Part shown: in pieces, positions 19,372-42,254 of the stretch
Layout: every line of letters begins with the position of its first letter
Numbering within the stretch: the stretch's first letter is position 1
Assembly (NCBI GenBank): GCA_002069885.1
Contig: MWCD01000001.1
Coordinates: forward strand, 2,770-66,769
Origin: a bacterium ADurb.Bin236
GTDB lineage: Bacteria > UBP15 > UBA6099
Length of the DNA stretch: 64,000 bases
Direction of reading: 5' to 3'
Notes under the pieces: generated by a model
What the model was told of the DNA's origin: nothing
Seen by the model: the letters and a program-made list of their open reading frames with translations, nothing else
Databases searched by the model: none
Translations under genes and position numbers: made by a program

Positions 19372-19373
19372 AA

Positions 19374-22106: not shown

Positions 22107-22174
22107 CAAAGGCGGAAAGCGAGGCGTGTTTCGGCCTCGCGAAAATATTGACAACTATGGAAAGGAGGCATGAG

Positions 22175-22690
22175 ATGGCGACGGCGATAGAAAGACAGAC
22201 GAATGAAAAAGGCGCGGGCGCGACTCGAAAGTATTTGACTTTCGCGCTCGGCGAAGAGGAATACGGTCTGGAGATAATGAAGGTGCGCGAGATTATTGGA
22301 CTTATGGACATAACTCGGGTGCCGAGGATGCCGGAGTTCGTGCGGGGCGTTATCAACCTGCGCGGCAAAGTGATTCCCGTTCTTGACCTGCGGATGAAGT
22401 TCAACATGGACAAGGCCGAGGACACCGACCAGACGTGCATCATCGTGGTCGATATCGAATCGACCCTGATGGGCGTCGTGGTCGACGAGGTGTCGGAGGT
22501 GATGAACATATCCGAAGAGGATATCGAAGAGACTCCCGAGTTCGGCGCGCGAGTCAACACGGAGTTCATACTCGGCATAGGCAAAGCGCCGGGAAGAGTC
22601 GTTATTTTGCTCAATATAGTAAAGGCGCTCAGCGCCGAGGAAATAATCGCGATTTCAGAAATAAGAAACACAAAACAGGCTTCGGCTTGA
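22175..22690 (+). CDS. cheW: CheW coupling protein
   Basis: [22 protein letters not shown]...[15 protein letters not shown] CheW signature. A perfect AAAGGAGG RBS precedes the ATG at 22175. Confidence 0.9.
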
Positions 22691-22730
22691 AAGCCCGAAG
22701 CGAAATTTAAGAACAGGCGGAGGCGGAAAG

Positions 22731-24989: not shown

Positions 24990-25016
24990 ACGCAACCTTT
25001 CAAAAGATAGTCTTGC

Positions 25017-25060
25017 GACGGAGCCGGGAAACCGGCTCCGTCTTGCTTTTGTCTGTTTTT
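25017..25060 (+). terminator. rho-independent terminator after the MCP gene
   Basis: gacggagccgg-gaaa-ccggctccgtc hairpin followed by ttgcttttgtctgttttt. Confidence 0.75.
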
Positions 25061-25419
25061 CATTGATCGCTACCGAATCCTATGAAGGATTCGGGTTGAT
25101 TCGGCTGTCGGCAAGCGGCTCTCGAAAACGTTGCCAACGCCTTTCGGGCGCGTGTTTCTTGTCTTTTAGCAGGCTGATTAATGAAAACTGCGCAATTATA
25201 GAAAAAACGGCTGTTGTCATTACAAAAAGCTTAAATATTACATTTGCAAAAGGAATTTGTGTTTTCGCGCATGGGTGAGCCAGATAGTTTGTGATTACTG
25301 TTGTTTTCAAAAAAGATGTCTATTGCTTCGCGTAAGTGAAGCGCAGAAAAAAATAAATAAGCCTTTAATAATGCTGATATATCCACATATTGCGCGTTTC
25401 GCTAACGTTCACGGAGATG

Positions 25420-25436
25420 TCGGCATAGCAATTGCA
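25420..25436 (+). promoter_or_regulatory. candidate sigma-54 (-24/-12) promoter tCGGCATagcaaTTGCA upstream of cheR
   Basis: GG at 25422-25423 and GC at 25434-25435 have the canonical 10-nt spacing, and the -12 element is TTGCA. It lies 34 nt upstream of the cheR ATG, and a sigma-54 activator is encoded in the same island. The -26 T is replaced by C. Confidence 0.4.
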
Positions 25437-25469
25437 TTACTTATTAAAACAAAAGAGGGAAAACGGAAG

Positions 25470-26312
25470 ATGACTGCAACGCAACACTACGAACTGAAAG
25501 ACAGAGAATTCAGGAAAATCAGTTCCATAGTATATGACGCATGCCGGATAAATTTGAGAGACGCGAAAAAGGAGCTAGTGCAGGCAAGGCTGGCAAAAAG
25601 GCTCCGGGCGCTAGGCATGGACAGTTACGGCGACTATCTCGACCTTATCGAGAAAGACGCCTGCGAACACACGATAATGATCGATTATCTTTCGACGAAC
25701 CTGACGATGTTTTTTCGCGAGAGGGGACATTTCAACTACCTTGCAGAAGAAGTTTTTCCGCGGATAAGCGAGAGTTCCACTGGAAGGATATGGAGCGCGG
25801 GATGCTCGTCGGGAGAGGAAGCGTACACGCTGGCGATGTTGTTGAGGGAGAACTTGCCGAAGATAAATCTGATGGATTGCCTGATTCTTGCCACAGACAT
25901 TTCAACGAGAATGCTCGAAGCCGCAAAGCGAGGCGTTTACACCGCAAAGCGAATGGAAAACGTGCCTGAAGACATGCTTGAAAAGTATTTCAGGAAAACC
26001 GGAAGAGCGGAAGAGACATTCTTCGAGGCGGGCGCGGCGCTCAAATCGCTTATACGGTTCAGGTACTTAAATTTGATCGGGCCGTGGCCGATGGACGCGA
26101 AGTTCGACGCGATACTTTGCAGGAACGTGATGATATATTTCGACAAGCCGACGCAGCAGGAGCTTGTGGCGCGTTTTTACAACCTTCTGAAGCCCGGCGG
26201 GATTTTCATCGTAGGACATTCCGAAAGTCTAGTGGGAATAAACCATGATTACACATTCGTGCGCCCGTCAATATACAAACGGCCCGCAGGAGAGGAGAGA
26301 GTCGCGTTATGA
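25470..26312 (+). CDS. cheR: chemotaxis protein methyltransferase CheR
   Basis: RIWSAGCSSGEEAYTLAML SAM-binding signature. ATG 25470 has an RBS. The upstream ORF extension is rejected. Confidence 0.9.
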   Translation: MTATQHYELKDREFRKISSIVYDACRINLRDAKKELVQARLAKRLRALGMDSYGDYLDLIEKDACEHTIMIDYLSTNLTMFFRERGHFNYLAEEVFPRISESSTGRIWSAGCSSGEEAYTLAMLLRENLPKINLMDCLILATDISTRMLEAAKRGVYTAKRMENVPEDMLEKYFRKTGRAEETFFEAGAALKSLIRFRYLNLIGPWPMDAKFDAILCRNVMIYFDKPTQQELVARFYNLLKPGGIFIVGHSESLVGINHDYTFVRPSIYKRPAGEERVAL

Positions 26313-26785
26313 CACACAACGTGGGAATATCAGACCTGAAGGTTTCAAACGATCCCGGAGACGACATCAAGACTCATTCGCTCGGCTCTTGCGTCGGGGT
26401 TACGATGTACGACCCTGCGGTTTCAGTGGGCGGAATGCTGCATTATCAACTGCCGTCGGCGCGGGAACACTCGGAAAAAGCCGCGACGAATCCATACATG
26501 TTCGGAGATACGGGAATCACAGAACTGATGAAGGAAGTGTTTGAACGGGGCGCGGACAAGCGCCGGCTCGTGGTGAAACTGGCGGGCGGCTCAAACGTCG
26601 CCGATAAAAACGGCTTCTTCAACATAGGAAAAAGGAATCTCATCATCGCAAAGAAATTCCTCTGGAAGAACGGCCTTTTAATCACCGGCGAGGATGTGGG
26701 CGGCGAAACTTGGCGCAACCTCAAACTCGAATTGGGAAGCGGCCGCGTTTCAATAAAAAGCGGCGACGGCGAATTTGACATATAG
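26309..26785 (+). CDS. cheD: chemoreceptor glutamine deamidase CheD
   Basis: HSLGSCVGVTMYDP...GGMLHY CheD core. Overlaps the cheR stop (translational coupling). Confidence 0.85.
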   Translation: MTHNVGISDLKVSNDPGDDIKTHSLGSCVGVTMYDPAVSVGGMLHYQLPSAREHSEKAATNPYMFGDTGITELMKEVFERGADKRRLVVKLAGGSNVADKNGFFNIGKRNLIIAKKFLWKNGLLITGEDVGGETWRNLKLELGSGRVSIKSGDGEFDI

Positions 26786-26796
26786 GAGGTTCGGCC

Positions 26797-27201
26797 ATGT
26801 CTTTCAACATCATGATAGTCGACGACTCAACCATTATCCGCACGATGATTAAAAGAACGATAACTCTGGCCGGAATTCCAACGGGCATAATCGTCGAAGC
26901 GCAAAACGGGGCGGAGGCGTTAGTTTCCCTCGGCGAAAACTGGATCGACCTGATTTTTACGGATATCAACATGCCGGTGATGGATGGGGTTGAGATGCTG
27001 GAAAGAATCAGCCGCGAAGAAAGAATCAGCGACACTCCAGTGATAGTTGTCTCGACTGAAGGAAGCGAAACGAAAATCGACCGCTTGACGCGAATGGACA
27101 ACGTGAAAGCGTTCATAAGAAAGCCTTTCGCTCCGGAGAATCTCCGAGACGCCGTTGAAGCGGCGCTGTCGGAGAGAATTCAGGAGGCTGCAAATGCTTG
27201 A
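26797..27201 (+). CDS. cheY: CheY-like receiver protein
   Basis: IMIVDDS...IFTDINMPVMDG...K receiver. Confidence 0.8.
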   Translation: MSFNIMIVDDSTIIRTMIKRTITLAGIPTGIIVEAQNGAEALVSLGENWIDLIFTDINMPVMDGVEMLERISREERISDTPVIVVSTEGSETKIDRLTRMDNVKAFIRKPFAPENLRDAVEAALSERIQEAANA

Positions 27202-27682
27202 CGAGAAGCTTCGGCAGGTTGCTCAAAGGATATTAGAGGACGCGGCGTTCGTTTTTGTGGACGGGGGGGCAGAAGACGCTATCGAGCTTCTTAACGGAGA
27301 AAACGCGTTGTCGGCGACGCTGGAATTCGACGGCGAGTTCTCAGGCTCGATGTCCATGTCCGCTTCTTATTCATTGGCGAAAACAATGGCGGCAAATCTC
27401 CTTGGCGCGGACGATCTCGACCCTGAAGCTGAAAGCAAAAAGACCGACGCTATCGGAGAGCTGCTTAACATGGTTTGCGGAAACCTGCTGCCGGAAATAG
27501 CGGGGACTTCTCCTGAATTCAAAATTGGCGCGCCTCGCGCCGTGTCGTTTGACGAGACTAAGCGTCAGTCAGCGGATATTGCCCGCTCAAACGGAAGCTT
27601 GGTTGCCATGTCGGTTGAAGGATGTGAAGTCGTGATGTCGTTATTGATTAACGACGAATCCGGAGCGGGAGAACGTGTGTGA
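27194..27682 (+). CDS. cheX: CheX-like (CheC-family) phosphatase
   Basis: IGELLNMVCGNLL block typical of CheX. ATG 27194 overlaps the CheY stop. Confidence 0.65.
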   Translation: MLDEKLRQVAQRILEDAAFVFVDGGAEDAIELLNGENALSATLEFDGEFSGSMSMSASYSLAKTMAANLLGADDLDPEAESKKTDAIGELLNMVCGNLLPEIAGTSPEFKIGAPRAVSFDETKRQSADIARSNGSLVAMSVEGCEVVMSLLINDESGAGERV

Positions 27683-27746
27683 TCGCTTGCGGCTCCCATT
27701 TTGAAGATGAGGCGGACGAAAGAGATAAGAGCGAACAGCGGAAAGG

Positions 27747-29531
27747 ATGATAAAAATGAGCGAAAACGGAAAAGTGAATATCGAGATATCAGGAGACGAG
27801 ATGACGGCGGTGGCCTTCATAACTCCTCCCGGCCTGACAGGCAAACCGGTGGAAGTGGCGGATGTGAAAAAGTCGCTCGAAGAAGCCGGCGTCGTTCACG
27901 GCATAGTGAACAATGAGCGAATTAAATCGTTCGTTGACGAGGGGCGGCTGATCCCAATTGATTTTCTCGCGGCGGCTGGAACCCGTCCCGGGCATGGCGC
28001 GGACGCTTCTATTGAAAACGTCTGGCTTAAAAAAGACGCTCCCGCCAGAATCGACGAAAAAGGCAGGATCAACCTGCGCGAGCTTAATGTCGTGAAATCC
28101 GTGTCTCAGGGTGAAACCATCGCGGTGAAAACGCCGCCCACTCGCGGCGAGACCGGGATGACCGTTAAAGGCGTTGAAATTCCCGGCGAGTGGGGTTCCG
28201 ACGTTTCATTCAAGGCGGGCCGCAATGTAATCGTTTCTGACGACGGGTTGGAGTTCAGGGCCGCAATCAGCGGCTCCCCGAATTACGCGGGCGGAATCCT
28301 CAATGTCGATCCGGTGTTTGTCGTGGATGGCGACGTGGATTACTCCACCGGAAATATCAACTTCGCCGGGGCGCTCGATATAAGAGGAAACGTGCAGGAC
28401 GGTTTCGTTGTCAGGGCAGAGGGAAACATTACGATCGGGGGGAATGTTCAGGCTGCGGAAGTGGTTTCCGGTGGCGATGTCGTTGTGAAAGGCGGCATAA
28501 TCACGCGGCATGAGGGCGTCGTCGCGGCGGCCGGTAGCGTAAGCGCGAAGTTTATCGAAAATTCCGAAGTCGAGGCCGAGGGAGACGTGGTGGCTGAGCG
28601 AGCCGTCATCAATAGTCTCGTCAAATGCAATGGGACCGTGATTTGCTCGGACGGCGAGGGAAAAATCATGGGCGGCGAAATCATGGCCTATAACGAAATC
28701 CGCGCAAAACATCTCGGTTCGGACAAAGAGTCCAAGACCACGCTCCGCGCGGGTTTCAAGCACGACATATACATAAAAATGTCTGAAATGGAAAAAAAAC
28801 TTGAGGAAATAATCGAGGAAGCCGCCGGTCTTCAGAAAAACCTCCTCGCAAAAAACGCCAAACCGGAACTGGTCGCCGAGGTGAAACAGAAAATCCAGTC
28901 TCTTGAGACCGAAAAGTTAGGCCTTCAGCAGAGAATCGCTTCGCTTCGCCTCCGGGTTCAGGTGAACCCGTTTGCGACGGTGAAAGGCGAGGAATACATA
29001 CATCCCGGCTGCGTGGTTTACATCGGCGGTTCAAGGGAAAGGATAGCGAACCCCCTCAAGTTCGCCACTCTTATGGCGGACGCTGACGGGGGCGTGGCGT
29101 TGTCGTCTTACGACGAAACCAGCGGAAGCATCAAAACGGTTAGAGTCGGCTCGAAAGAAAAAAAGAAAACTGTCATGATAGTGGACGACGCCAGATTCAT
29201 GAGAAACAAACTCAAGAACATCCTCGAAAACGGCAACTTCAGAGTGGTTGGCGAAGCCGAGGACGGCAGACAGGCGGTGATGTTGTTCCAGAAACTCAAG
29301 CCAGATGTCGTGACCATGGACATAACGATGCCAGATGTCGACGGCATCAGCTCTTTGCGGGCGATAAAGAAAATTCATCCGGACGCAAGAGTCGTTATGA
29401 TATCGGCGCTCGGACAGAAAGAGAAAGTCCGCGACAGTCTTGTTGCCGGCGCGAGGGACTTTATTATAAAACCTTTCATCCCTGAGAAAGTCATCGACAC
29501 CATGACTAAAGTTCTTGAAAAAACCAACTGA
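27747..29531 (+). CDS. FapA/DUF342 domain protein fused to a C-terminal CheY-like receiver (594 aa)
   Basis: N-terminal DUF342-type beta-helical repeats (GNINFAGALDIRGNVQDGFVV...GGNVQAAEV), a coiled-coil segment, then VMIVDDARFMRNKL...VTMDITMPDVDG...K. Confidence 0.7.
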   Translation: MIKMSENGKVNIEISGDEMTAVAFITPPGLTGKPVEVADVKKSLEEAGVVHGIVNNERIKSFVDEGRLIPIDFLAAAGTRPGHGADASIENVWLKKDAPARIDEKGRINLRELNVVKSVSQGETIAVKTPPTRGETGMTVKGVEIPGEWGSDVSFKAGRNVIVSDDGLEFRAAISGSPNYAGGILNVDPVFVVDGDVDYSTGNINFAGALDIRGNVQDGFVVRAEGNITIGGNVQAAEVVSGGDVVVKGGIITRHEGVVAAAGSVSAKFIENSEVEAEGDVVAERAVINSLVKCNGTVICSDGEGKIMGGEIMAYNEIRAKHLGSDKESKTTLRAGFKHDIYIKMSEMEKKLEEIIEEAAGLQKNLLAKNAKPELVAEVKQKIQSLETEKLGLQQRIASLRLRVQVNPFATVKGEEYIHPGCVVYIGGSRERIANPLKFATLMADADGGVALSSYDETSGSIKTVRVGSKEKKKTVMIVDDARFMRNKLKNILENGNFRVVGEAEDGRQAVMLFQKLKPDVVTMDITMPDVDGISSLRAIKKIHPDARVVMISALGQKEKVRDSLVAGARDFIIKPFIPEKVIDTMTKVLEKTN

Positions 29532-29544
29532 GGCGGATACGGCG

Positions 29545-30081
29545 ATGAAAGCGGTTTTTCTGAATCCTTTTGTGAAGTCTGTTTTTGAGATACTCGAAAG
29601 CGTGGTTTATGAGACTCCCGAAAAAGGCGACATATTCATCCGGGAACGGTATCCGTGCAACATGGAGACCGTCTCGGCGATGGTTGGCATAACCGGAAAG
29701 CTTACGGGGCAGGTGACGCTGACCATGAGCCGCAAGTCGGCAATCTCCATCGCGGCAAAAATGATGATGGAGGATGGACTTGAGGAATTGGACGAATGCG
29801 CCCAGAGCGCGCTCGCCGAGATGGCGAACATGGTGGCCGCCAACGCCGCCGCCAGCCTATGCGACGACGGATATGAATGCGACATCACCACTCCGACGGT
29901 GATTACCGGCTCCAACATCGAGATTTCCTTCAGGCCGGAAGTAAAAACTATCGTTATTCCGCTTACGCTCAGCGTAGGCAGCATCGACGTGAATATTTCA
30001 GTGGCCGAGACATCTTTTATAAAAGGGTTGCAAGGCTCCGCGCGCGCGGCATCCGAAACTGCCGCCGCAGGGGCGATTTGA
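29545..30081 (+). CDS. cheX: second CheX-like (CheC-family) phosphatase
   Basis: MVGITGKLTGQVTLTM...LAEMANMVAANAA matches the CheX family. ATG 29545. Confidence 0.6.
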   Translation: MKAVFLNPFVKSVFEILESVVYETPEKGDIFIRERYPCNMETVSAMVGITGKLTGQVTLTMSRKSAISIAAKMMMEDGLEELDECAQSALAEMANMVAANAAASLCDDGYECDITTPTVITGSNIEISFRPEVKTIVIPLTLSVGSIDVNISVAETSFIKGLQGSARAASETAAAGAI

Positions 30082-30108
30082 AATACTGAAAGTTTAATTG
30101 AGGTTATT

Positions 30109-30516
30109 ATGGCGGCTTTTAACTGGAGCGATAAATATTCGGTAAATGTGGCCGAGATGGACGCGCAACATAAAAAACTAGTGGGGCTTCTTAACGAGCT
30201 TGACGAGGCCATGAGTCAGGGCAAAGGAAGAACCATCGTCGGAAGGATTCTATCGGGTCTGGTCGATTACGCGGCGACTCACTTCCGAGATGAGGAATCT
30301 CTGATGGAGCGGCATGGTTTCGCAGACATTGAGGCGCACAAGGCTCTTCACGACAAGTTGACGGCCCAAGCCACAAGCCTCAACGCTGAGTTTCAAGCGG
30401 GAAGCATTTCTGTCACCATAGATACTATGAATTTCCTTACGAACTGGCTGACCGACCACATTCTCGGAACGGACAGCAGGTACGGCGCATATCTCAACGG
30501 GAAAGGAATATACTGA
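30109..30516 (+). CDS. bacteriohemerythrin (hemerythrin-like metal-binding domain), 135 aa
   Basis: MDAQHKKL, HFRDEE, HKALH and TNWLTDHI His/Glu iron ligands spaced as in hemerythrin. Confidence 0.8.
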   Translation: MAAFNWSDKYSVNVAEMDAQHKKLVGLLNELDEAMSQGKGRTIVGRILSGLVDYAATHFRDEESLMERHGFADIEAHKALHDKLTAQATSLNAEFQAGSISVTIDTMNFLTNWLTDHILGTDSRYGAYLNGKGIY

Positions 30517-30563
30517 ATCCGGTTCATCCGAGCGTGAAGCGGCTGCGGTAAGGTTAATCATCG

Positions 30564-31850
30564 ATGAGCGAATCATCTTGCAACTTGTCTGGCGTGGCTC
30601 TTGTGATGTCGGATTTTTTAGATTTGGTGAACCCGAAACTGTCCGGGCATCACAGGTCAGTTGCGTATATCGCAATGTCCGTGGCGGAAAGGCTGGGCCT
30701 GCCGTCCGAGAGCAAAGAAGACATAATACTGGCGTCTCTAACACACGACATAGGCGCGCTTTCCGTTGCCGACAGGATGGAGGCGCTGGATTTCGAGTTC
30801 GTCGACGCCGACAGCCACGCGCGAGCCGGAAGCAGGCTGATCGCAGCGTGCGCTCCGCTTTCCGGCGTGGCGGACATTGTGGCCCGGCATCATGAATGGC
30901 ACGACTCATTCGTAAAATCAGGGGTGGACGCCGACATTGCGTTGAGCGCCTCGATAGTCCATCTCGCCGACAGGGTGTCCATTCTGCTGAACGACAGCTC
31001 CGAGCCGTTGTCGCAACGCAAGAAAATAATCGAAAAAATATCCAAAAGGGCAGGCGGAATGTTCAACCCGCGGGTCGCGGCCGCATTCATCGAAGAATCG
31101 CGCCGCGAAGCGTTCTGGTTCGGCACATTGCCGGAATTCAGAGACTCGGCCATCGCAAGGTTCGTGTCTGAAAACGGGGACGTTGACCTGTCAACGGCTG
31201 ACATGCTCGATGTGGCTAAGCTCTTCTGCCGGATAATAGACTACCGGAGCAGTTTCACCGCCGCGCATTCAGCGGGAGTGGCGGCCTGCGCCAGCGCTAT
31301 CGGCGGCTGCCTAGGTTTGCCGAACCATGAAAAAGCGCGGCTGGAAACTGCGGGCTATATGCACGATATCGGCAAAATGGCGGTTCCTTCATCCCTTATT
31401 GAAAAAAGAGGCGGGCTTGCCGACGAAGAGTTCAACATAGTGAAGTCTCACGCGTTTTATACTTATCACCTTCTGGACAAACTACCCTGTTTTTCCGTCG
31501 TCAGGGATTACGCCGCCATGCACCACGAAAAAATAAACGGGAACGGCTATCCTTTCAAACTCAAAGGCGGCGAGATACCGACGGGAGCCAGAATCGTGGC
31601 GGTCGCAGACGTGTTCACAGCCCTCTCAGAAGACCGTCCGTTCAGAAAAGCCTTAGCATTGGATGACACAATCAAAACTATCGACGAGATGGCTTCAGAC
31701 GGCTCTCTTGACGGCGATATCACGCGCGCGCTCAAATCCAACCTGAGCCTTGTCGATTCAGCCAGAGCAAAAGCGCAGCGCGCAGCCATTTTTGAATACC
31801 GCTCTTTCGAGGACGGACGCGGAATAATCGCTCACAGCGCGTCAGCTTAA
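30564..31850 (+). CDS. tandem-HD protein: degenerate N-terminal HD domain plus canonical C-terminal HD-GYP c-di-GMP phosphodiesterase domain
   Basis: First domain has LTHDIG...HHEWHD with no GYP. Second has MHDIGK...HHEKINGNGYP. Confidence 0.8.
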   Translation: MSESSCNLSGVALVMSDFLDLVNPKLSGHHRSVAYIAMSVAERLGLPSESKEDIILASLTHDIGALSVADRMEALDFEFVDADSHARAGSRLIAACAPLSGVADIVARHHEWHDSFVKSGVDADIALSASIVHLADRVSILLNDSSEPLSQRKKIIEKISKRAGGMFNPRVAAAFIEESRREAFWFGTLPEFRDSAIARFVSENGDVDLSTADMLDVAKLFCRIIDYRSSFTAAHSAGVAACASAIGGCLGLPNHEKARLETAGYMHDIGKMAVPSSLIEKRGGLADEEFNIVKSHAFYTYHLLDKLPCFSVVRDYAAMHHEKINGNGYPFKLKGGEIPTGARIVAVADVFTALSEDRPFRKALALDDTIKTIDEMASDGSLDGDITRALKSNLSLVDSARAKAQRAAIFEYRSFEDGRGIIAHSASA

Positions 31851-31903
31851 CTAACGAAAGGCCGGACGACGCCGACAACTAGGCAATCCGGGATAATGGA
31901 GAT

Positions 31904-32512
31904 ATGGAAAACACAGCCAGAAAATTTATCAGATCAAAAAAAATCCTTGTTGAGAACGTGGAGCCGGGGATGACGCTCGCAGAGGACATTAAAACCGCAG
32001 CGGGCGGAGTAATTCTTCCGGCGGACTCCATCCTATCAATGACCAACATCGAGAGGTTGAAAGAGTTTGATATTTTCTCGATATATGTCGAGGAAGAGAC
32101 AGTTCTCCGGGAGTCCGACGCAATGCGCGGGAAGCGAGCTGTGGTTATCGACGACGCTCTTTTCTTCAGGCACATGTTCTCCAAGATGCTCTACAAGATG
32201 GGCATATTCGTGATGGAAGAAGTGGAAACCGCAGAGGAAGGCGTGTGCCACGCGAGAAAATACCGGCCGGACCTCGTGATAGTCGATATCCATCTTCCCG
32301 GCATGACCGGTATAGAAGCGATTAGGGACATAAAAAGCAAATGCAGCGGCTCGAAATGCGTCGCAGTTTCCACTGACAAAGACCGGAAGACGGTAGTGGA
32401 CGCCCTGCGCGCCGGAGCCGATGACTTTCTGGTCAAACCTGTAATGTGGGATCGCCTCAAACCTAGGATATGCAAACTATTTGATAGTGGCAAAGACGCT
32501 GTTGTCATGTGA
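31904..32512 (+). CDS. response regulator with an N-terminal domain of unknown function and a C-terminal receiver
   Basis: VVIDDALFFRHM...VIVDIHLPGMTG...K receiver in the C-terminal half. Confidence 0.7.
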   Translation: MENTARKFIRSKKILVENVEPGMTLAEDIKTAAGGVILPADSILSMTNIERLKEFDIFSIYVEEETVLRESDAMRGKRAVVIDDALFFRHMFSKMLYKMGIFVMEEVETAEEGVCHARKYRPDLVIVDIHLPGMTGIEAIRDIKSKCSGSKCVAVSTDKDRKTVVDALRAGADDFLVKPVMWDRLKPRICKLFDSGKDAVVM

Positions 32513-32702
32513 TCCGCGTGTCTGAAGAAGAAACGTTCGGACAACTCAATTATGAAAATCCCGGGTAGAATCGTAAAGATGATAAAAGATTTATCGCTGA
32601 CTTGGCCTTGAAACTTTGAAAACTTAAAAATCTTCTCTTAAAGCTCTCTCTTTGTTATGCAAGGCAATGGAAAGTTTCAGTTGACTGCGCTGGTGATTAC
32701 TG

Positions 32703-33033
32703 TTGTTCAAAGTCAGCGCAAATGAGAATCCTAGGCGATAGAAACAAATAATAGATGCGGGTAGTGAGTCAAGGGGCTGGCTTTGCGATGCTGAAGGTGG
32801 TATTAAAGGAGCTTGGCATTGCAGAGATAAATGTTTTAAAAAAGATTAAGAAGCCAATTCCATGTGAGCCGAAAATCCTTAAATGTGCGCAAGATTTGTG
32901 CTAGGGTTTTTATGAATTTGCAGAAGCAATTAAAATTGGCTAAAATCCAAAATCGCTCTTATTTACTGGGCGTTTTCTATGCCGAAGAAGGGAATCGAAC
33001 CCCCACGAGGAGTGATCCTCGGCAGATTTTGAG
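32703..33033. repeat. 331-bp direct repeat, about 99% identical to 44250-44581: a 277-bp non-coding block plus the 54-nt tRNA-Leu 3'-half
   Basis: Base-by-base comparison shows one substitution and one 1-nt indel. It ends exactly at the anticodon-loop junction of the tRNA fragment (32980-33033). Confidence 0.85.
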
Positions 33034-33863
33034 AGAATTGAGAATCTCAAAATTTATTTTCATACAAGGCTTTTATTACATTCAAACAACCTGTGTTACG
33101 CGTGTGTTATAGAGATTCAGGATACATTCATTAAATTCTTGGATTGAAAAGGGTGTGGTAAATTATTCATGCCAATAATGTGACAATGTACTCCTCGTGA
33201 TGTATATTCGGGTTAAAGAGACATTTGCTTGTCCTTAGAGAATCTTTAACAATAGCGACCATTGCTAATAGGAGGCTTGAAAACTTAAAACTTGCGTTCG
33301 GAACATCTGCCTCTCTTGCTGATTTCCGATTCTCATTATCGATTAAGATGAACAACGCAGTCAGACGCTGGAACAACCTTTATGTTAAAGTAACAGACGC
33401 CTATAGAAACAGAAATTCAACTACACTTCAAAACCGTGATTATTGAAATAACGTCTATGCACGAAGTTGCATCGTGCGCTGTGGGTAAACCACTCCACGC
33501 ACGATGATTTTGCCTTTATCGCAGAACTCCGCGACATCCGCGCCTTATCCCACCTGTTTTCGTTTTTTTCCCGATACTCCTTAACGGCAGAGGTTTCGAC
33601 TTCATACTCAAGTTCCTTGTTTCTCTGAAAGTCATACAATGAGATTATATTTTTACGCGTTGCTGTAGGAAATGATGTCATACGATTTATTATTTGGAAT
33701 TATACATGAATTGTTGCTGTTTTCGCTCATGCACAAAAGAATGATTTTTGCGCCGGCGCACAAAAAGATAGGTGAAATCTATTAAGAACAACTATAATTT
33801 GCCAGATTCTATATAAATTCGGAGAAACAGCAATCAATTATCTTCGGATTTGGGAATTAGGTT

Positions 33864-36800
33864 TTAGTCGAATTTGAATTTAATGGAAATGTAAGGGCCT
33901 TTGCCCCAATAAGAGTCGCCGGCGAGGTCGGAGTCGAAGTCGTCGAAGCTGTAGCCTGTTGTCAACCAGATGTTTTTCAAGCATTTGTAGCCGAGTTCGG
34001 CGGAACCGCCGATGCTCTGTGAATTGATGCTTCTGCTTCTCAACGTCCTTGCTTCCAGCCCGATGTCGAACCTGCTGGTCAGATCATAAGTAAACCGCCC
34101 GGCAACCATATCAGTGTAAGACCTGAACAAGTCTGTTTTTGAAATTTTTGCCGCGTATTTTCCGGTTAACGAAAAGCTTTTCGACGGGTGGTAAACGCCC
34201 TCTATGGAATAGATCCTCGCCGACGGAGTGGAGTCCGAAACGACGGGAGAGCTTCTGTCGCGCTTGAATTCTATACGAGCGAAAGCATTGAAGCGGTTGT
34301 TGTGGGCTGGTCTGTAGGCGACACCGACCATGCTGCCGGTGGTGGTGCGCTGTGCTCCGGTCGAGTATCCGGTATTGGACCACCGTTGGCGAAGGAGCAG
34401 GGAGTAATCTGTTCCCATCTTGGCAGCCAGACCGAGTTCGGCGAGGCGGGAAGTATCGAGAGTCGAGTCGCGGTATTCGGCTCTTGCGGTCATTTTAACA
34501 TCTCTCATGAACACAAATTCAGTTCCCGCCGTAACCGCGAAAGCATCGGGGTCGCGCTGCATCTCCGCGCCCTTTACGGTGTTTAGTTTTTCGAGGGAGA
34601 CAGATCCGGAAACCCGGTCGTTGAGAGCAAACTTGTTTCGGACGCCGATAGCCCGCTGGACCCTGCGGCCGTCCGCGCCGCCTTCGAGCCGGTATTCGTT
34701 AAACGCGGACGTGTCCCGCGCAATCGGAGTCTCAACGCCGAGGACATTGCGCCAGCTCCGGCTGCCGTCGAGCCGCCAGAACTCTCTCCTTGCATAAAGA
34801 TGTCCGGCGCCCTTCAGTTTGTAGTCCAGTTTGGCGCTGCTGACGTTGAAGTTGTTATCCTGAATGTCCTGCTGGTGTTCCAGAGTGAGCGCGAGCCTCG
34901 GCCTGATGTTCCCGGTGAGCGAAAACCGCGCGGCGGTCGTCTTACTCGGCGTGCGCTCGGAGATGTCGAAAGGATACCGTGTCCGGTCGGTGTTCGTGAT
35001 GATAAAGTTATCATTGGAACTTTCGCGCAGCAGCTCCGACTCGAATTTCATGTTCCGAATCGTCCGTTTCAGGAGAATCGAGCTCAGGCGGTGATCCATG
35101 TAGTTGACGCTGTCTCTCTCCGTGAAGAACTTGCCCGCGAGGGTCGTGTTTCGATTTTTGAGGAATGAGAATTCGAGTCCTTTTTTCTCCATGCCGCGCT
35201 GCGCATCCACCGCAGACATATTCCCGAAGTAACTCCTCGTGTTTCTCCAGTAGGCGGTAATTTTCGTTCTCTCCAGCGCGTCGCTCTTAAGTTCGAACGA
35301 CCACCCGCCGCCGTTTTTAAGCGCGAGGATATTGTCGATGTTGAACAGCGACTTCGTTTCGGCAAACTCGTATTTCAGGGTGGTGAGCTTGTGGAGTTTG
35401 TAGTCGAAGTCCATGCCCCAGAGATGATAGTCGGAGGTTTCGGCTTCCTGAGTGACTCCCGTGAACCCGACACCGAGGCGGTCGTTCAGTTTGAACCTCA
35501 GCCGGGCGCCGTAGATGTAATACGTGTTTCCGCCGCCCTCTGTCTCATAGCTGACAATCAGGTAAACGGGATTCAGGTCTTCGTCGTAGCTTGGCAACGG
35601 ATCCTTTAGCAGGATTGCGCCGGTTTCGTAATCGATGGAGTATTCGGACCACCTTGACAGTGTGTCTCTGTTCAGCGCCGCCTCTGGCCGGAGCCTGTCG
35701 CGGATTTCGACGGCCACGGTTTCGCTGCCGTCCATAATCGGGGCGGCGGACAGATAATAGTAGCCGGATACGCCGCGGCCGGGTATCGCGTCCACCACCT
35801 GCGACTGGTCGGTGTGAGTCTCGAATGCGGACAGGCGGTACTTATCCGTGTTCATGCCGATCTTCAGGCCGTTGAAGGAGCGCGAGTACGCGCTCAGTTT
35901 CGTCTCGTTGAATCCCGTCTCAAAGTCTCCGAACAGCAAATGGGACTTGCGGCGGTCGAGACGCAGATAAAGTTTCTCGCGGGACTGAGCTTCGAAGCTC
36001 GTCACGCTGTCGTCGCCGTAGATCGGGTACTGGTCTTCGGCGTCAGGATTGCGCAACGAGTTAAAGAAAAGGTCGGGGCGTTTGCTCTTGTGTGAGTCGT
36101 ATGAGAGAGTAAGAAGCGAATCGTCGCCGATTTTTCTTTTTGTGAACAGAGCGCCGCGGGCGCCAGCGTAGCCGCCCCGGTCGAACCAGCCATCGCTGCT
36201 GCGGATCAGTTCCGTGTCTCCGCCCGCTTTCCCGCTGCCGAACCTGAATTCCACGAGGCCCACCGAGAGGTTGTCGCCGAGGTCGGGCGTGAAGTGCACC
36301 TTCGCGGAACCCTGTAGTTCGCCGAACGCGACGGTTATCACCGCCTCGCCTGCCTGTCTCGGCGCTTTTACATCGAACCGCGCAGCGCCGCCGCTGTAGA
36401 GAACCTGCACGCCGTCCATGCTCGCGTCCGCGTCTTTCGTGTCTATTTCCCCGGAGGTTGTTTCGACGGTCGCGATACCTTCATATGCCACGGGAAGCCC
36501 TTTATCGTCGTACACCGAAGCGGAGACGCGCGCCTTCGAAGCGCCGTCCGCGATGATTTCCGTTTTTTCGGGTTTCACCTCAATCTTGGCGGGTAGCCCG
36601 GCGGCGGTAATCCTGATTTCCTTTTCGCTTGTTATATTTCCGTCTTCGTCCCGGGTTTCCGCGCGTATCGCGTTTTCCGCTCCGGGCGCGAGTTGGATTC
36701 CTATGTATTGGTAGATAGCTATTTCAAGCTCGGATTCCGTTATCTTTTTACCGACCCTTTTGCTGCTAACCGGTTCGTCGTTGAGGAAGAGGTAAACCTT

Positions 36801-39800
36801 CGCGGCAAGCGGAGCTTTGACCGTGATATTAGTGTTTGCCGCCGAGGAGACCGATCCGTCCTCGGGATAGAGGATGTCGAGGTCGGGAGTCATCGATGAA
36901 ATCTCTTCTTCGAGAGGAACGTAAACGAACTCTGTCCTGCCGGCGGCCGCGGCCTGTCCGGAGGTTGCGGCTTTTTCGCGGGTTTCCATATTTCTTCTAT
37001 CCGCTGATTCCTTATCGCCGGATACAGTGAAGTCCGCGTTCATGATGCCGCCGGAAACCATGTCTATGAACTGCGAATCCGGATCGCCGGCGAACCTGTT
37101 GGTGGATAGCGAGGAGATCGATATTCCGGCGGGAAGGGTCTTTGCTTCGATCTTAAGCACATGCAGTCCGGGCGTTACGCCGATCACCGAATACTTGCCG
37201 TCCGTTCCGGTTACGATCCTCGCGCCGTCTTCCATGTAAATTGCGACTCCGGACACACCCGGCTCTCCGCGGCTCTGCATTCCGTCGCCGTCAGAATCCA
37301 CAAAAACTTTGCCGACGATGGTGCCGTTCGAGGTGAACACGCCTTCTTTAATGGTTACAGTGTAATATGCGGTGTTGGAAGAAACTGTTTTTGCGCCGAG
37401 AGTTCCCTGAGCGTAAGCGGTGTTTTTGCCATCGCCACGCTTGCTGTCCACTCCGACGACCGTGCTGTAGGAAATTTCGAAGTAACCGCCGGCTGCAAGG
37501 GAAGTGACGCTCCACGCGAGAGTCATGGAAGCGGGCCTTGCGGGGTCAGCCGCCGCGCCGCTGAGTGTTGTCGAGCCGTCGATATACTGCATCCCATGCG
37601 GCAGTATGTCGGTCACCGTGATGTCGTTCACCGGCCAGCTTCCCGAGTTGGAAACACGCACCGTGTACCTTACGATATCTCCGATAGTGGCATTTTTTTT
37701 ATCTGCGGTCTTGGTCACTGCGAGAAGTTCGATCACCGGCGGGTCCACCGGGATGTCGAAGTTCAACGGATAATAAACCAAGTCTCCGCTTTCGACAACG
37801 CCCGCGTCCTCAAATTCGCCCGGGAGCGGGGTTACGAAAGGATTGCCCTTAGACCTTTCATCCACCCTGTACTGCTTCGGCATCTCCGAATTGGGAATCA
37901 GTGATGGGAAAGTAAAATTTCCTCCGACTGCAACGCTTACCCGGTAGTGAGCGCCGTCGGGTGTCTTGGGAACATAGTAAAAAGTAAAAACACCGTCCGC
38001 GCTGGTTCCCGCAACCGAGGGGCTGGGATTGGGTTGGTTATAAGGAAGCGCGACAGAAGTTTCCACGGACTGATCTATTTGGGTAAGGGTCACCACGGCG
38101 CCCGCGACCGGTTCGCCGGTCATCGAGTTGAATACACGGCGCTGCGGCTCCACTAACGCGAACTGACGTGAAAGCGGGGTGCCGTTCGGATCAAACGGAT
38201 CGATATATATCCCTTCGAGTTCTCCTCCCGCAGTTAATGTTATATGACCGTTTCCGGACGTTGCGGCGGTCGCCGATGACCTTGCCGCGCGCGTGGCGGC
38301 CATTTCGCACTGACCGCTGTTCAAGATGTTCGGCACGCAGCCGCGGAACATTTCGGAGTTCGTCCCGACCTCGGTAAGCACGACGGTTTCCGTATCGCCG
38401 CTCAACTTATCAACAATTGTGACTTCCAATGTGTCTTTTGTGTTGGGATTGATATTTCTATCCGCGTCGTTGACTTGCAGATATATGTCCTCATAAGTCA
38501 TTAGCGTGCGTTTAATAGTCGTATATGTTTTATTGTAGATTTCTAGGTAATTATCGACGTCGCGAGCCGAAACCACGGTGGTCGCAGTCGCTGACACCGG
38601 GTCTGAGTCGTCCGCTGTTACGGTCGCCACATTTTTAATCGTATCGCCATCGAGTTCGCTGTCCGGCACGTTGAGAAGCAACTTGAGAGTTTTGCTTTCT
38701 CCGGCGGACAGATCGCCGATGTTCCATGAAACCGAGCCGTTGGAGAAAGTCCCCCCGTTGTCCGCGCTGACGAAACTCGTTTTCTCCGGGATGGGGTCTG
38801 TAGCGAACACGTTTGAAAGCTGTATGTATCCGTCGTTGGAAATCAGTATGGTGTAATAGATGTCGTTTCCCGCGAACGCGGGAAGGCCGGTCTTTGTAAC
38901 TGAAAGCGATGCCTTGCGGATATAAGTTTCGACCGAATTAGAAACCGCCGGAGCAAGTTCGGCGCAGGTTATCGAGGCGATATTGGTGATGGTGGTTTCG
39001 AGCGCGGAGATGGATGAAACGGAAACGGAGAATTCCAGATCGCCTTCAGCGCCGGGAACGATAGCTCCGAGATCCCATGAAACAATGCGGCCCGAGAGAA
39101 CACCGCCGCCCGTGATCGAATTTTCCACGAGCGAGGTTTCGGACGGCAATTCATTGATGACTCTCGCCAGAGACGCATCCGCATTGCCGATGTTCTTGTA
39201 ATGAAGAGCGTAGGTGATTGTGCCGCCGGGGCCGACCACGGCGGACGAGGCCGATAGCGACAGTTTAAGATTCGGTCCCGCGCCGACCATTATGCTATTG
39301 GTATAATTGGTTTGTGTTTCATCCGAAACCATCGTGATGGAATTCTCGATGACATCGCCGACTGAAATTGCGCTTGGGTCGGCGGGAGGATAATCGGCCG
39401 CAGTTTTGACGACGCCGGTGAGTGTGAGCGTGCCGCTCTGACCTACTGCCAGCGATCCGAGATTCCATGAAACGGTCCCGCCGGCCGGACCGGCGGCGTA
39501 AACTCCGCCGCCGGTCGCCGACGAGAATATCACATAATCAGAAATCGAGTTCGTGAGAACTACATTCGATGCATCAGAATTGCCCGAGTTCTCGTAGTAG
39601 ATCGTATAAACGAGCAGTGACCCCATAGCCGTCGGGTCGGAGCTTTCAGTGACCCGGAGGAACAGAACGGGGGCTCCGGAAACTGTGACCTCCGCCTGAG
39701 CTTCGACTCCGGGCATGGGATTTCCGCCCGCGTCACGATACGAAACGAGAGCGCGGTTGACAATCAGGGTTCCGATCGGAGGGCTAGATGCGCGCGCCGG

Positions 39801-39884
39801 CGGGCATGCTGCGGCAAGCGCCATCAGGCATATAAGCGCCGCTCGCGCTGCAATACCGGTGATTTTGCGCTTTACCGATCCCAT
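33864..39884 (-). CDS. giant secreted DUF11-repeat / Ig-like surface protein with a roughly 900-aa C-terminal predicted outer-membrane beta-barrel (2006 aa)
   Basis: Signal peptide MGSVKRKITGIAARAALICLMALAAACPPARA. Multiple DUF11-type repeats (LxYTIxYxNxGNxxASNVVL). C-terminal region has alternating hydrophobic/aromatic strands and ends in ...ISIKFKFD. Confidence 0.75.
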   Translation of the reverse strand: MGSVKRKITGIAARAALICLMALAAACPPARASSPPIGTLIVNRALVSYRDAGGNPMPGVEAQAEVTVSGAPVLFLRVTESSDPTAMGSLLVYTIYYENSGNSDASNVVLTNSISDYVIFSSATGGGVYAAGPAGGTVSWNLGSLAVGQSGTLTLTGVVKTAADYPPADPSAISVGDVIENSITMVSDETQTNYTNSIMVGAGPNLKLSLSASSAVVGPGGTITYALHYKNIGNADASLARVINELPSETSLVENSITGGGVLSGRIVSWDLGAIVPGAEGDLEFSVSVSSISALETTITNIASITCAELAPAVSNSVETYIRKASLSVTKTGLPAFAGNDIYYTILISNDGYIQLSNVFATDPIPEKTSFVSADNGGTFSNGSVSWNIGDLSAGESKTLKLLLNVPDSELDGDTIKNVATVTADDSDPVSATATTVVSARDVDNYLEIYNKTYTTIKRTLMTYEDIYLQVNDADRNINPNTKDTLEVTIVDKLSGDTETVVLTEVGTNSEMFRGCVPNILNSGQCEMAATRAARSSATAATSGNGHITLTAGGELEGIYIDPFDPNGTPLSRQFALVEPQRRVFNSMTGEPVAGAVVTLTQIDQSVETSVALPYNQPNPSPSVAGTSADGVFTFYYVPKTPDGAHYRVSVAVGGNFTFPSLIPNSEMPKQYRVDERSKGNPFVTPLPGEFEDAGVVESGDLVYYPLNFDIPVDPPVIELLAVTKTADKKNATIGDIVRYTVRVSNSGSWPVNDITVTDILPHGMQYIDGSTTLSGAAADPARPASMTLAWSVTSLAAGGYFEISYSTVVGVDSKRGDGKNTAYAQGTLGAKTVSSNTAYYTVTIKEGVFTSNGTIVGKVFVDSDGDGMQSRGEPGVSGVAIYMEDGARIVTGTDGKYSVIGVTPGLHVLKIEAKTLPAGISISSLSTNRFAGDPDSQFIDMVSGGIMNADFTVSGDKESADRRNMETREKAATSGQAAAAGRTEFVYVPLEEEISSMTPDLDILYPEDGSVSSAANTNITVKAPLAAKVYLFLNDEPVSSKRVGKKITESELEIAIYQYIGIQLAPGAENAIRAETRDEDGNITSEKEIRITAAGLPAKIEVKPEKTEIIADGASKARVSASVYDDKGLPVAYEGIATVETTSGEIDTKDADASMDGVQVLYSGGAARFDVKAPRQAGEAVITVAFGELQGSAKVHFTPDLGDNLSVGLVEFRFGSGKAGGDTELIRSSDGWFDRGGYAGARGALFTKRKIGDDSLLTLSYDSHKSKRPDLFFNSLRNPDAEDQYPIYGDDSVTSFEAQSREKLYLRLDRRKSHLLFGDFETGFNETKLSAYSRSFNGLKIGMNTDKYRLSAFETHTDQSQVVDAIPGRGVSGYYYLSAAPIMDGSETVAVEIRDRLRPEAALNRDTLSRWSEYSIDYETGAILLKDPLPSYDEDLNPVYLIVSYETEGGGNTYYIYGARLRFKLNDRLGVGFTGVTQEAETSDYHLWGMDFDYKLHKLTTLKYEFAETKSLFNIDNILALKNGGGWSFELKSDALERTKITAYWRNTRSYFGNMSAVDAQRGMEKKGLEFSFLKNRNTTLAGKFFTERDSVNYMDHRLSSILLKRTIRNMKFESELLRESSNDNFIITNTDRTRYPFDISERTPSKTTAARFSLTGNIRPRLALTLEHQQDIQDNNFNVSSAKLDYKLKGAGHLYARREFWRLDGSRSWRNVLGVETPIARDTSAFNEYRLEGGADGRRVQRAIGVRNKFALNDRVSGSVSLEKLNTVKGAEMQRDPDAFAVTAGTEFVFMRDVKMTARAEYRDSTLDTSRLAELGLAAKMGTDYSLLLRQRWSNTGYSTGAQRTTTGSMVGVAYRPAHNNRFNAFARIEFKRDRSSPVVSDSTPSARIYSIEGVYHPSKSFSLTGKYAAKISKTDLFRSYTDMVAGRFTYDLTSRFDIGLEARTLRSRSINSQSIGGSAELGYKCLKNIWLTTGYSFDDFDSDLAGDSYWGKGPYISIKFKFD

Positions 39885-39915
39885 AAACAGCTCAGAACCC
39901 TTTCATTCCAATTCG

Positions 39916-41709
39916 TCAATTTATAGTCACAGAAAACCGCAGGACATACGTGCCGCCTGCGCCGAGACTCGGCGTTTCACCGAGAGCGTTGTTGGAACCC
40001 GAGTCGTAAGTCGCGCCGTCGCCGTCGCTTGCATCCGTCCGGGAAACAAGCGTTCCCGTAGTGGCGCCCGTGTACAGACTGCCCGGCACGTATGTCGTGT
40101 GCAGCGGGATGTGATCGGTTATAACTACTACCGTGGCCACTCCTGTGCCGGAATTGGTTGCAGTTATCGTGTAGGTGAGAGTCGTTCCGGGAGGCTGAGT
40201 TCCGGTAGGGCTGACCGATTTGGTAAGCGTGACAACCGGCGCTGTGACCGTGGTGGTGAAGGTAAGGATGTCGCTCTTCGAGGTGTCAACCGAAGACTTC
40301 CCGGTCACGGCAAGGGTATCGATGCTCTGGTCCGAGGCGCCGGCGGGTATCGTAACTACTGCCAGCACAGAGATGGTCCCATTCTGCGCCAGCGTGCCGG
40401 TATCGACTTTGCCGTCGGCATCCGTGTCCGTCAGCAGATAATCTCCGTCGTTGCCGGATATGCCGTCGTTGTTCATATCCGCCCAGAACACCCATGTCCA
40501 GCCTTGGCTGGACGTGTAAGTCAAGTCGATCACGTCGTTGGAGTTTGTGTAGTTGTGGACTGTGAAAGGGTAGGTGATTTTGTCGCTCGGATCGCCTGAA
40601 AGCGCTGTTATGGTGACGGTCAGGTCAACCGAAGCGAGCGCGCCCACGAATAACGTTCTGCCGTTCGAGTATGTGGTTACATTGTTCGGCCCGGAAACGT
40701 ATGCGACGGACGCCTGATTCGTGATGGTCGAGTTATATGCCACGCCGCTGTTCACCGTGGCCTGAAATGTCACCGCCTTGGTTGAACCGGCATTGATTGT
40801 TCCCACAGTTACCGTCACCGCGCCTCCGGTTGTCCCGTTGTAATCCGAGCCGTCGTCGCCGGTGGCGTCCGTTTTCGTGGTTCCGTCTAATGTTATGCTG
40901 CCCGGCACGTACGTGACGCCCGTCGGGACGACGTCGGTCATTACAACCGAAGTTCCCGCCGACGACCCGGTGTTCGACATGGTGATCGTGTATGTCACGG
41001 TGTCGCCGGGCGCGGGGGATTCAGGCGAGTGGGTCTTAGCGGCATTAATCACCGCCGCGGCGACTGTCGTGGTGTACAGACCCGTGGTTGTCTGCCCGGG
41101 GTCGAACTGCGAAGTCGCCGTTATGGTAATGGTGTTGCTCGTGCCGTCCGTGGCGGCGCCGGACGCCGGAATCGTCACAAACATAAAAACGTCGTAATCG
41201 TCGTCCGCAACGACTGTTCCGGTTGTGTATTTTCCGGCGACGGCGGTCATCAGCGTGTCCGTCCCGGCATCGTAAGTATGGTTATTGTTAATATCGTAAT
41301 AGAATGTGATCGAAGACGGTGTCCACGCGCCCCCGACTGCATACGTGAAGTCGAACTTGTCGCTTCCGTTTCCGTCATTGAATATCTGAAAAAAATGCAT
41401 GATCGTAGTGTTGTTGGCGCCTGCCATGGTCCCGGACGGAGGGACTAACGAGACTGCTGCCACCTGACTTACCGTAGTTGTGACGGTGTTCGAGTAAACG
41501 CGCGTCATCGAGTTGTTGTTGGCGTCCTTGTAGTCAACGTACGCTTGATTCGAGATGATGGTGCCGGATGCCGTCCCGACCGCGTACAGTTTCGCCGCGG
41601 CCGCGACTATCCCCGCCGCCGCGAGCAGGAACAGCAGCGCCTCTAAAAACCGTTTCTTTTTTCCGTTTCTTATTTTCGTTGCATTTCTCATTACAGAGCC
41701 CCCTTTCAA
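39916..41709 (-). CDS. secreted DUF11-repeat protein (597 aa)
   Basis: Signal peptide-like N-terminus. Repeated TYTITxxNTG / DxxDxDG blocks. Confidence 0.7.
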   Translation of the reverse strand: MKGGSVMRNATKIRNGKKKRFLEALLFLLAAAGIVAAAAKLYAVGTASGTIISNQAYVDYKDANNNSMTRVYSNTVTTTVSQVAAVSLVPPSGTMAGANNTTIMHFFQIFNDGNGSDKFDFTYAVGGAWTPSSITFYYDINNNHTYDAGTDTLMTAVAGKYTTGTVVADDDYDVFMFVTIPASGAATDGTSNTITITATSQFDPGQTTTGLYTTTVAAAVINAAKTHSPESPAPGDTVTYTITMSNTGSSAGTSVVMTDVVPTGVTYVPGSITLDGTTKTDATGDDGSDYNGTTGGAVTVTVGTINAGSTKAVTFQATVNSGVAYNSTITNQASVAYVSGPNNVTTYSNGRTLFVGALASVDLTVTITALSGDPSDKITYPFTVHNYTNSNDVIDLTYTSSQGWTWVFWADMNNDGISGNDGDYLLTDTDADGKVDTGTLAQNGTISVLAVVTIPAGASDQSIDTLAVTGKSSVDTSKSDILTFTTTVTAPVVTLTKSVSPTGTQPPGTTLTYTITATNSGTGVATVVVITDHIPLHTTYVPGSLYTGATTGTLVSRTDASDGDGATYDSGSNNALGETPSLGAGGTYVLRFSVTIN

Positions 41710-41713
41710 GGAC

Positions 41714-42241
41714 TTACTTTACTTTTACTTTAAAACTGACCTTGCCCGACTTTCCCGGCTCCACCGTTTTGGCAATCAGCCACTTGATGTGGGTGTACAT
41801 ATCCGCCGGGGCTTCTTTCTCTTCGCTTTTTCCATCGGGTTTTTCCTCTATATATTTAATCGGAGGTTTCTGGAACACCCGCCCTCCGTCTATACTGAAT
41901 CCAATCTCCGTGTCTTTTCCATCAGCGCTGCCGATTATGTAAACCGTACCCTTCGGGACTGGGTCCACCACGGAGATGTCCTTCAACGGCGCTTTTCCTT
42001 CATTGGTGTAGGTTATGGCATAAACCAGAACGTCGCCGCGTTCAGCGTTGTCCGCAGGCTTCAGTTCCGTAACTTTCTTTCCGTTCTTCTCGACAATGGA
42101 TACAAGGTTTGCTTTGATTTCGAGCTTCAGAGGCTGTTTTAGCGATTTGCCTTTTTCCTGCGCCACCGCGGACCGCGCCGCGAACGCCGCCATCAGAAGA
42201 ACCACGACAATGCAAGCTGTTCTGATCTTGTAATTTTTCAT
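41714..42241 (-). CDS. small secreted single-DUF11-domain protein (175 aa)
   Basis: Signal peptide MKNYKIRTACIVVVLLMAAFAARSAVAQE, then DVLVYAITYTNEGKAPLKDISVVDPVP. Confidence 0.7.
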   Translation of the reverse strand: MKNYKIRTACIVVVLLMAAFAARSAVAQEKGKSLKQPLKLEIKANLVSIVEKNGKKVTELKPADNAERGDVLVYAITYTNEGKAPLKDISVVDPVPKGTVYIIGSADGKDTEIGFSIDGGRVFQKPPIKYIEEKPDGKSEEKEAPADMYTHIKWLIAKTVEPGKSGKVSFKVKVK

Positions 42242-42254
42242 GATATGTTTCCTT

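Follow-up and report, generated by a model that had tools for sequence, protein, structure and literature searches.

We consider it likely that a long direct repeat in the genome of bacterium ADurb.Bin236 is the tRNA-side end of two islands, which stand in tandem and without an integrase in the 3' part of a tRNA-Leu(CAA) gene. The array is of a known kind, that of tandem, integrase-less and att-flanked islands at a tRNA gene, and these members of it are new. On this reading, a long repeat is accounted for by the shared end of two stacked, integrase-less islands, and an insertion hotspot at tRNA-Leu(CAA), complete with its empty site, is documented in an uncultured bacterium from anaerobic digesters. 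In the following, the window means the whole stretch of DNA that was analysed, at its full length of 64,000 nucleotides.

Anatomy of the tRNA-Leu(CAA) array

Sequence comparison placed copy 2 of the direct repeat at positions 32703-33033 (331 nt) and copy 1 at 44250-44581 (332 nt). The copies differ in two places in all, namely by a 1-nt indel in a run of A residues, which numbers three in copy 2 (32742-32744) and four in copy 1 (44289-44292), and by one substitution (G32757 vs T44305). We thereby reproduced the coordinates and both differences of the near-identical 331-bp repeat, with its partner at 44250-44581, that a first-pass annotation of this DNA had reported. The final 276 nt of both copies are identical (32758-33033 and 44306-44581) and consist of 54 nt from the 3' part of tRNA-Leu(CAA) and 222 nt of flank. 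Homology is lost sharply on the cargo side of the repeat, where the earlier statement that the surrounding DNA is unrelated holds; it does not hold on the other side, where 33034-33189 resembles 13011-13166. Both these homologous distal arms and a third tRNA fragment (12957-13010) had been overlooked.

Read along the strand of the tRNA, the locus consists of promoter, tRNA 5' part, core, block, cargo X1, arm 1, core, block, cargo X2, arm 2, core and native terminator. The intact tRNA-Leu(CAA) gene lies on the minus strand at 44528-44613 (ARAGORN; Rfam RF00005, 55.6 bits), and its promoter-like site on the same strand, TTGAAA-N16-TAAAAT (44624-44651, 10/12), is conserved with two relatives, W2 and S. 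By sequence comparison, the 3' 54 nt of the intact gene are core copy 1 (44528-44581). Core copy 2 (32980-33033) is a 54-nt tRNA-Leu 3' fragment that extends from the anticodon loop to the discriminator base, and core copy 3 (12957-13010), the third such fragment, forms an attR-like outer boundary. All three cores are on the minus strand and are identical. In an alignment with the tRNAs of other species, core identity sets in at the 5' edge of the anticodon loop and continues as far as the discriminator base; Williams reportedly described this anticodon-loop sublocation in 2002 as typical for one class of tRNA-targeting tyrosine integrases.

Each core borders on a piece of non-coding DNA that belongs to an island; blocks, arms and native trailer are given here without strand. 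Block copy 1 (44250-44527, 278 nt, GC 0.38) is the tRNA-proximal, P'-arm-like end of island E1, and block copy 2 (32703-32979, 277 nt) is the tRNA-proximal end of island E2. Of 278 aligned positions, 2 differ between the blocks (99.3% identity), both of them within 56 nt of the cargo end. At the opposite island ends are distal arm 1 of E1 (33034-33189, 156 nt, GC 0.31) and distal arm 2 of E2 (13011-13166, 156 nt, GC 0.28), which differ at about 32 of 154 positions (~80% identity) and whose homology again ends sharply. Blocks and arms are AT-rich (0.38 and 0.28-0.31, respectively, vs 0.526 in the window), a composition that is usual for attP arms. Between these ends lie the cargoes X1 (33190-44249, minus strand) and X2 (13167-32702, plus strand), so that the islands measure 11,548 bp (E1) and 20,023 bp (E2), 31,571 bp in total. 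The middle junction of arm (156 bp), core (54 bp) and block (277 bp) covers 487 bp (32703-33189) and has an attP-like form. Core copy 3 has no block and is followed at once by the native tRNA-Leu trailer (12904-12956), which is contiguous with the tRNA in relative W2 and contains a strong bidirectional intrinsic terminator of 11 pairs (12925-12951).

No inverted repeats joining the block and arm ends were found, nor was an IHF consensus. A transposon or MITE was considered and rejected, as terminal inverted repeats and a transposase are lacking and the repeat is a gene-derived 54-nt core rather than a short target-site duplication.

Independent assemblies, empty site and relatives

Contigs of the same population were gathered by exact-protein look-ups of the flanking genes (ENA, JGI, Logan and NCBI MAGs), and every junction of the array was found in independent assemblies (ENA, JGI, NCBI MAGs). 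The junction from the tRNA through the block into the region upstream of DUF11 is present in loci L001-L003, that of response regulator, block and core, partly with arm 1, in L016 and L017, with L023 crossing it too, and that of the third site at core copy 3 in L006-L015. Two of the fetched contigs cross the middle junction: L023 in part, and a 60.9-kb JGI contig (L016), which carries the left flank, the middle junction and a CysE variant. The run of protein accessions suggests that a 49.9-kb MAG contig and a 542.8-kb ADurb.Bin236 contig also span this junction with the same gene order. When seven block copies were aligned, copy 1 was set apart from copy 2 by the indel and the T/G substitution in every case, and each block copy carries a private SNP in other samples. 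Since the differences are fixed across assemblies and each copy has private SNPs, copies 1 and 2 are two real paralogues. Both islands were present in all assemblies seen; the retention of X1 in every one of them, despite a 331-bp direct repeat that should make it prone to deletion, suggests either recency or selection.

The relative W2 (loci L043-L046), which was found through the CysE variant P0254, shares 94-96% nucleotide identity with the window from DnaE to CysE. Its gene order is CysE, tRNA promoter and tRNA-Leu, followed directly by terminator and trailer without a block, and this terminator and trailer are 93.5% identical to window positions 13010-12904. On this sequence comparison, W2 is the empty site, and the organism of the window acquired all DNA between the outer cores by insertion. 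A scan of the genome collection with the 54-nt core added three other MAG species with unoccupied tRNAs: each has a single intact tRNA-Leu(CAA), none has the block, and in two of them (L020, L021) the terminator directly follows. Because the tRNA of W2 is joined directly to its terminator, the 277-bp block is to be regarded as island-end DNA and not as a tRNA trailer.

Homology between the window and W2 also breaks off some 50 nt beyond the terminator and 33 nt short of the stop of a 293-aa gene (window 12871-12904; L043 11013-11154), so that the far flank of the site is variable too, and several W2 contigs break at this far edge of homology. The 293-aa gene stands in a different context in species T (L024); its homologues proved non-syntenic and for that reason uninformative. 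On the other flank, the gene that comes after CysE is BipA in the related species S and T and tRNA-Leu in the window and W2, with the break in synteny at most about 20 nt upstream of the tRNA promoter (window 44668-44695; L033 3368-3559; L038 10715-10909). The tRNA-Leu gene of species S lies between an amidohydrolase gene and an 832-aa ORF.

Searches for further relatives of the island ends covered several collections. Five scans of viral contigs (one by the core, two by block patterns and two by arm patterns) and BLASTN of plasmids and phages with the 487-bp junction found nothing, a metagenome scan with one arm motif recovered the same population only, and none of the loci fetched from outside this population contained another copy of block or arms. 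Likewise, neither a cognate integrase nor an autonomous relative with block or arms was found among viral contigs, plasmids and phages, in the genome scan by core or in the metagenome scan by arm motif. The block and arm sequences are without relatives in the collections searched, and thus apparently do not belong to a known element.

Origin of the repeat

In the mechanism we propose, block and 54-nt core would together make up one half of a recombination site that resembles attP and spans about 490 bp. The layout corresponds to attL, a hybrid attR/attL junction and attR, as two successive attP x attB insertions would leave it. Since the core spans the anticodon loop to the tRNA 3' end, each insertion rebuilt the tRNA and pushed the earlier core copy and the native terminator further away. 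Such tandem insertion with rebuilding of the tRNA is shown by genomic anatomy, that is, by the layout of the array and by the empty site in a close relative. The array thus combines a rebuilt tRNA 3' target, distal core repeats and an unoccupied site, as in integrative islands, with the absence of an integrase gene from the islands. The insertions would have been carried out by a site-specific recombinase, probably of the tyrosine type, that acted in the region of the anticodon loop and that may be encoded elsewhere or may have been lost. The islands would accordingly be CIME-like, able to move only in trans or together with a helper element, or they could be fossils.

If two diverged relatives had simply accreted, the sequences on either side of the core should have diverged to a similar degree, whereas 99.3% identity was seen in the blocks and about 80% in the arms. 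With 2 of 278 vs about 32 of 154 positions differing, the core and block copies share a much more recent template than the arms, and both copies may stem from one very recent template. This could have come about by two routes. Either the circle of the second island had a block that was already identical to the resident one, in which case recombination could have taken place anywhere in the shared 331 bp and could even have been RecA-mediated, or core and block were subject to later gene conversion. Conversion of an originally 80%-similar block was rejected as the sole cause, since the last 56 nt, with 2 differences, would then be expected to hold about 11. The first-pass annotation had offered element DNA at the tRNA-proximal end of both islands and a very recent duplication or gene conversion as alternatives. 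The former is borne out by the absence of the block from the native trailer, the empty site and the three other species, and the latter is needed in addition to account for the unequal identities of blocks and arms, so that the earlier interpretation is partly supported.

Other explanations of the repeat concern its reality and the nature of the block. It had been considered from the outset that the second copy might be an assembly artefact, and the repeat, or its end, is often where short-read contigs break (L017-L019, L004); however, L016 and, in part, L023, both from other samples, cross the middle junction, as two more contigs seem to do to judge by accession order, and the two copy-specific differences recur in every assembly, which refutes this explanation and leaves it virtually impossible. 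We find it scarcely conceivable that the block is a native 3' trailer which this lineage conserves at tRNA-Leu(CAA) and which was duplicated along with the gene fragment, another possibility that had been raised earlier. The block does lie directly 3' of the intact tRNA, and its opening bases, TAGAAAACGCC, resemble the opening of the W2 trailer, TAGCAAAAAAGCC, but an intrinsic terminator instead of the block immediately follows the third fragment, as it does the tRNA genes of W2, S and the distant MAG RA.bin91; the block is missing from all three other species, and the W2 empty site has already refuted a native trailer. It is very improbable as well that the block works as a non-coding module, for instance as a regulatory region, an outward-reading promoter or a small RNA, whose copies selection keeps identical, and the earlier proposal of a conserved non-coding RNA or regulatory module was not supported. 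A promoter-like TTTGCA-N18-TAAAAT lies on the plus strand of both block copies, together with a weak plus-strand terminator-like hairpin, and TGTG occurs seven times on the plus strand and not at all on the minus strand of the 487-bp junction (32703-33189), where about 1.4 occurrences are expected, a weak observation that was counted post hoc. Against such a module, an Rfam scan, as suggested by the first-pass annotation, found only the tRNA, both at the gathering threshold and at E≤10, and the block folds no better than its shuffles on either strand (z +1.02 and +0.27). The motif that had been described as good and promoter-like on the plus strand is a 9/12 match, and the four promoter-like sites of its region are in line with the 3.7 expected from shuffles. 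No copy of the block was found outside this population, and selection alone would not yield blocks of 99.3% identity beside arms of 80%. The longest ORF inside the block, of 46 aa, had no Pfam match (E≤1) and one spurious repetitive hit among 1.84 billion representative proteins. The block is thus without a detectable function beyond that of an element end, in which it may carry arm-type binding sites: the TGTG motifs, including a TGTGTTA-N4-TGTGTTA that is conserved in both arms, may be sites at which a recombinase binds.

An exchange of cassettes that is independent of an integrase, with the 331 bp of core and block as portable homology for RecA, is a further explanation, which we regard as unlikely. 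Here, a circle of cargo, arm, core and block would be looped out and re-inserted into any genome that carries the succession of tRNA, core and block, and the second insertion would require no site-specific recombinase. The shared 331 bp, of which 276 nt are perfectly identical, are long enough for RecA, and near-identical blocks beside unlike arms would be directly accounted for. The lack of an integrase within the window and the replacement of clusters between conserved flanks at a tRNA-Gly locus, which proceeded without att repeats, also fit this explanation. However, a first insertion into a virgin tRNA would share just 54 nt with its target, and the boundary falls exactly at the anticodon loop, with the tRNA rebuilt; homologous arms beyond both cores are a hallmark of attP x attB recombination, and the origin of arm and block would be left unexplained. 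Two successive site-specific insertions, followed or accompanied by homogenisation of core and block, are therefore the reading that we prefer.

Island cargo, cluster exchange and known systems

The two islands differ in their cargo. X1 contains four DUF11 (CLIPPER) surface-protein genes of 586, 175, 597 and 2006 aa, separated by AT-rich spacers, and has a tetranucleotide signature that differs from that of the flanks (r 0.73-0.79), to which its biased protein composition may contribute. A protein identical to the 583-aa DUF11 protein P0287 (window 42255-44006) is labelled 'Candidatus Syntrophosphaera sp.' by NCBI in one MAG, probably through a binning error for this contig. X2 encodes, as judged by Pfam, a complete chemosensory system, with a PAS/GAF histidine kinase, a sigma-54 activator, CheY, CheA, CheW, an MCP, CheR, CheD, a further CheY, CheX, a FapA-receiver protein, CheX/C, hemerythrin, an HD-GYP-type HD protein and a receiver. 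The composition of X2 is host-like (tetranucleotide r 0.95 vs the flanks). Pfam detected no integrase, excisionase, transposase or conjugation gene in the large ORFs (at least 134 aa) of both islands and the far right flank, and no such gene was found among the ORFs of spacers and blocks (Pfam, E≤1) or in the precomputed domain lists of the other called flank genes. Remnants of mobility genes were not found in the islands either.

The chemosensory cluster also occurs in a relative, R (GCA_029573925.1 and a JGI contig; L036, L037, L047), at a different tRNA gene. Window positions 13279-32519 share 93.9-94.9% nucleotide identity with the cluster of R by BLAST, and similarity extends to about 32546 by alignment, so that X2 and the R cluster have diverged to a degree like that of the core genome. 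In R, the cluster (L047 9825-16172; L036 1-12882) lies between ProS/tRNA-Gly(CCC) and YdjM/MFS and starts about 215 nt after the tRNA-Gly 3' end. Neither block, arm, tRNA fragment nor att-like repeats were found around it, and its far end holds no detected repeat of a tRNA-Gly fragment. Two independent assemblies of R (L036, L037) break inside cheA at nearly the same spot (window ~19624-19677), which points to a repeat, or to variation between strains, in the N-terminal region of CheA. In the window's organism, the slot between tRNA-Gly(CCC) and YdjM, on another contig (L048 10554-17593), is occupied by a 7-kb cyclase cluster instead, with genes for a GAF-cyclase, a 283-aa protein, a 315-aa protein, a cyclase and a Wzy_C/TPR protein, and homology to R is lost 4 nt beyond the 3' end of tRNA-Gly. 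RA.bin91 (L020 1787-6502) has a homologous cyclase cluster of four genes, 175 nt 3' of tRNA-Leu(CAA), and the two cyclases of this cluster share 43-54% amino-acid identity with those of the window's organism.

Clusters have thus been replaced between conserved flanks at the tRNA-Gly locus without att repeats, and gene clusters of this lineage seem to be exchanged between the 3' flanks of tRNA genes. Because of its host-like composition and its att-less copy at tRNA-Gly in R, X2 does not resemble the classical foreign cargo of an island; our interpretation of the 331-bp repeat is unaffected by this finding. A complete 19-kb chemosensory system in two different tRNA-adjacent slots of ~95% identical genomes indicates that native signalling modules may be reshuffled by flexible tRNA flanks and not only by classical foreign islands. 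One could speculate, though we think it quite unlikely, that host-like, operon-sized clusters (chemosensory, cyclase and adhesin) are giant cassettes that shuttle between the 3' flanks of tRNA-Leu-CAA and tRNA-Gly-CCC. In that case, a recombinase acting in trans on a site of about 490 bp would have its platform in the tRNA-Leu array, and the units would be integron-like rather than decayed ICEs. If such a recombinase were found, the array would offer a tractable case of operon-sized, cargo-only cassettes.

Among described systems, CIMEs are elements that have kept attL and attR but have lost the genes for integration and transfer, and they occur in tandem accretions (PMC5704250). The islands described here retain attL- and attR-type ends at the sequence level and lack integration and transfer genes. 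Descent from a decayed ICE or IME is not apparent in them, since no remnant mobility genes are present and X2 is a host-like cluster that occupies another locus in a sister genome. With the ICESt1/ICESt3-related CIMEs of Streptococcus thermophilus (PMC5704250) they share attL/attR-type bounds without integration or transfer genes, the tandem position at the 3' end of the target gene, a hybrid att junction and conserved arms beyond a short gene-derived repeat. Unlike the S. thermophilus elements, they have no known integrase-bearing relative, target the anticodon-loop site of tRNA-Leu(CAA), carry host-like 19-kb chemosensory cargo in place of decayed ICE genes, show strongly unequal identities of block and arm, and reside in a host from an uncultured anaerobic-digester lineage, bacterium ADurb.Bin236.

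Dehalococcoides has islands in tandem at ssrA, fifteen of which are devoid of an integration module and have been proposed as CIMEs (PMC3146451). The ssrA islands resemble the present array in their tandem position downstream of a small-RNA gene, in direct repeats of the gene's 3' end and in conserved adjoining sequence, but have a 20-bp repeat, the serine recombinase DsiB and, in many of them, a retained module (PMC3146451), where our islands have a 54-nt gene-derived core with a shared arm of 277 bp and no recombinase that we could see. In the tycheposon arrays of Prochlorococcus, successive integrations at one tRNA also displace older elements inward, partial tRNAs lie between the units, and the cargo is adaptive and of host type; tycheposons differ from the islands here in having their own tyrosine recombinase and replication genes, and there is no sequence relationship (bioRxiv 10.1101/2020.12.28.424599). 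By analogy only, the islands are also similar to integron gene cassettes, which consist of cargo and a recombination site without a recombinase of their own and line up in tandem at one platform. In contrast to integron cassettes, our array has no attC structure, IntI or attI, its units are multi-operon stretches of 11-20 kb, and its platform is a tRNA gene.

Some observations concern transcription at the island ends. The intact tRNA-Leu is separated from its native terminator, which is now 31.5 kb away, and no minus-strand terminator was detected in the block (44528-44250); transcription of the tRNA may therefore read through towards the DUF11 operon. Beyond arm 1, a non-coding spacer of 674 nt (33190-33863) extends to the stop of the 2006-aa gene. 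It includes an 86-aa ORF on the minus strand (33421-33681), which has no Pfam match, and a hairpin terminator-like site at 33745-33766.
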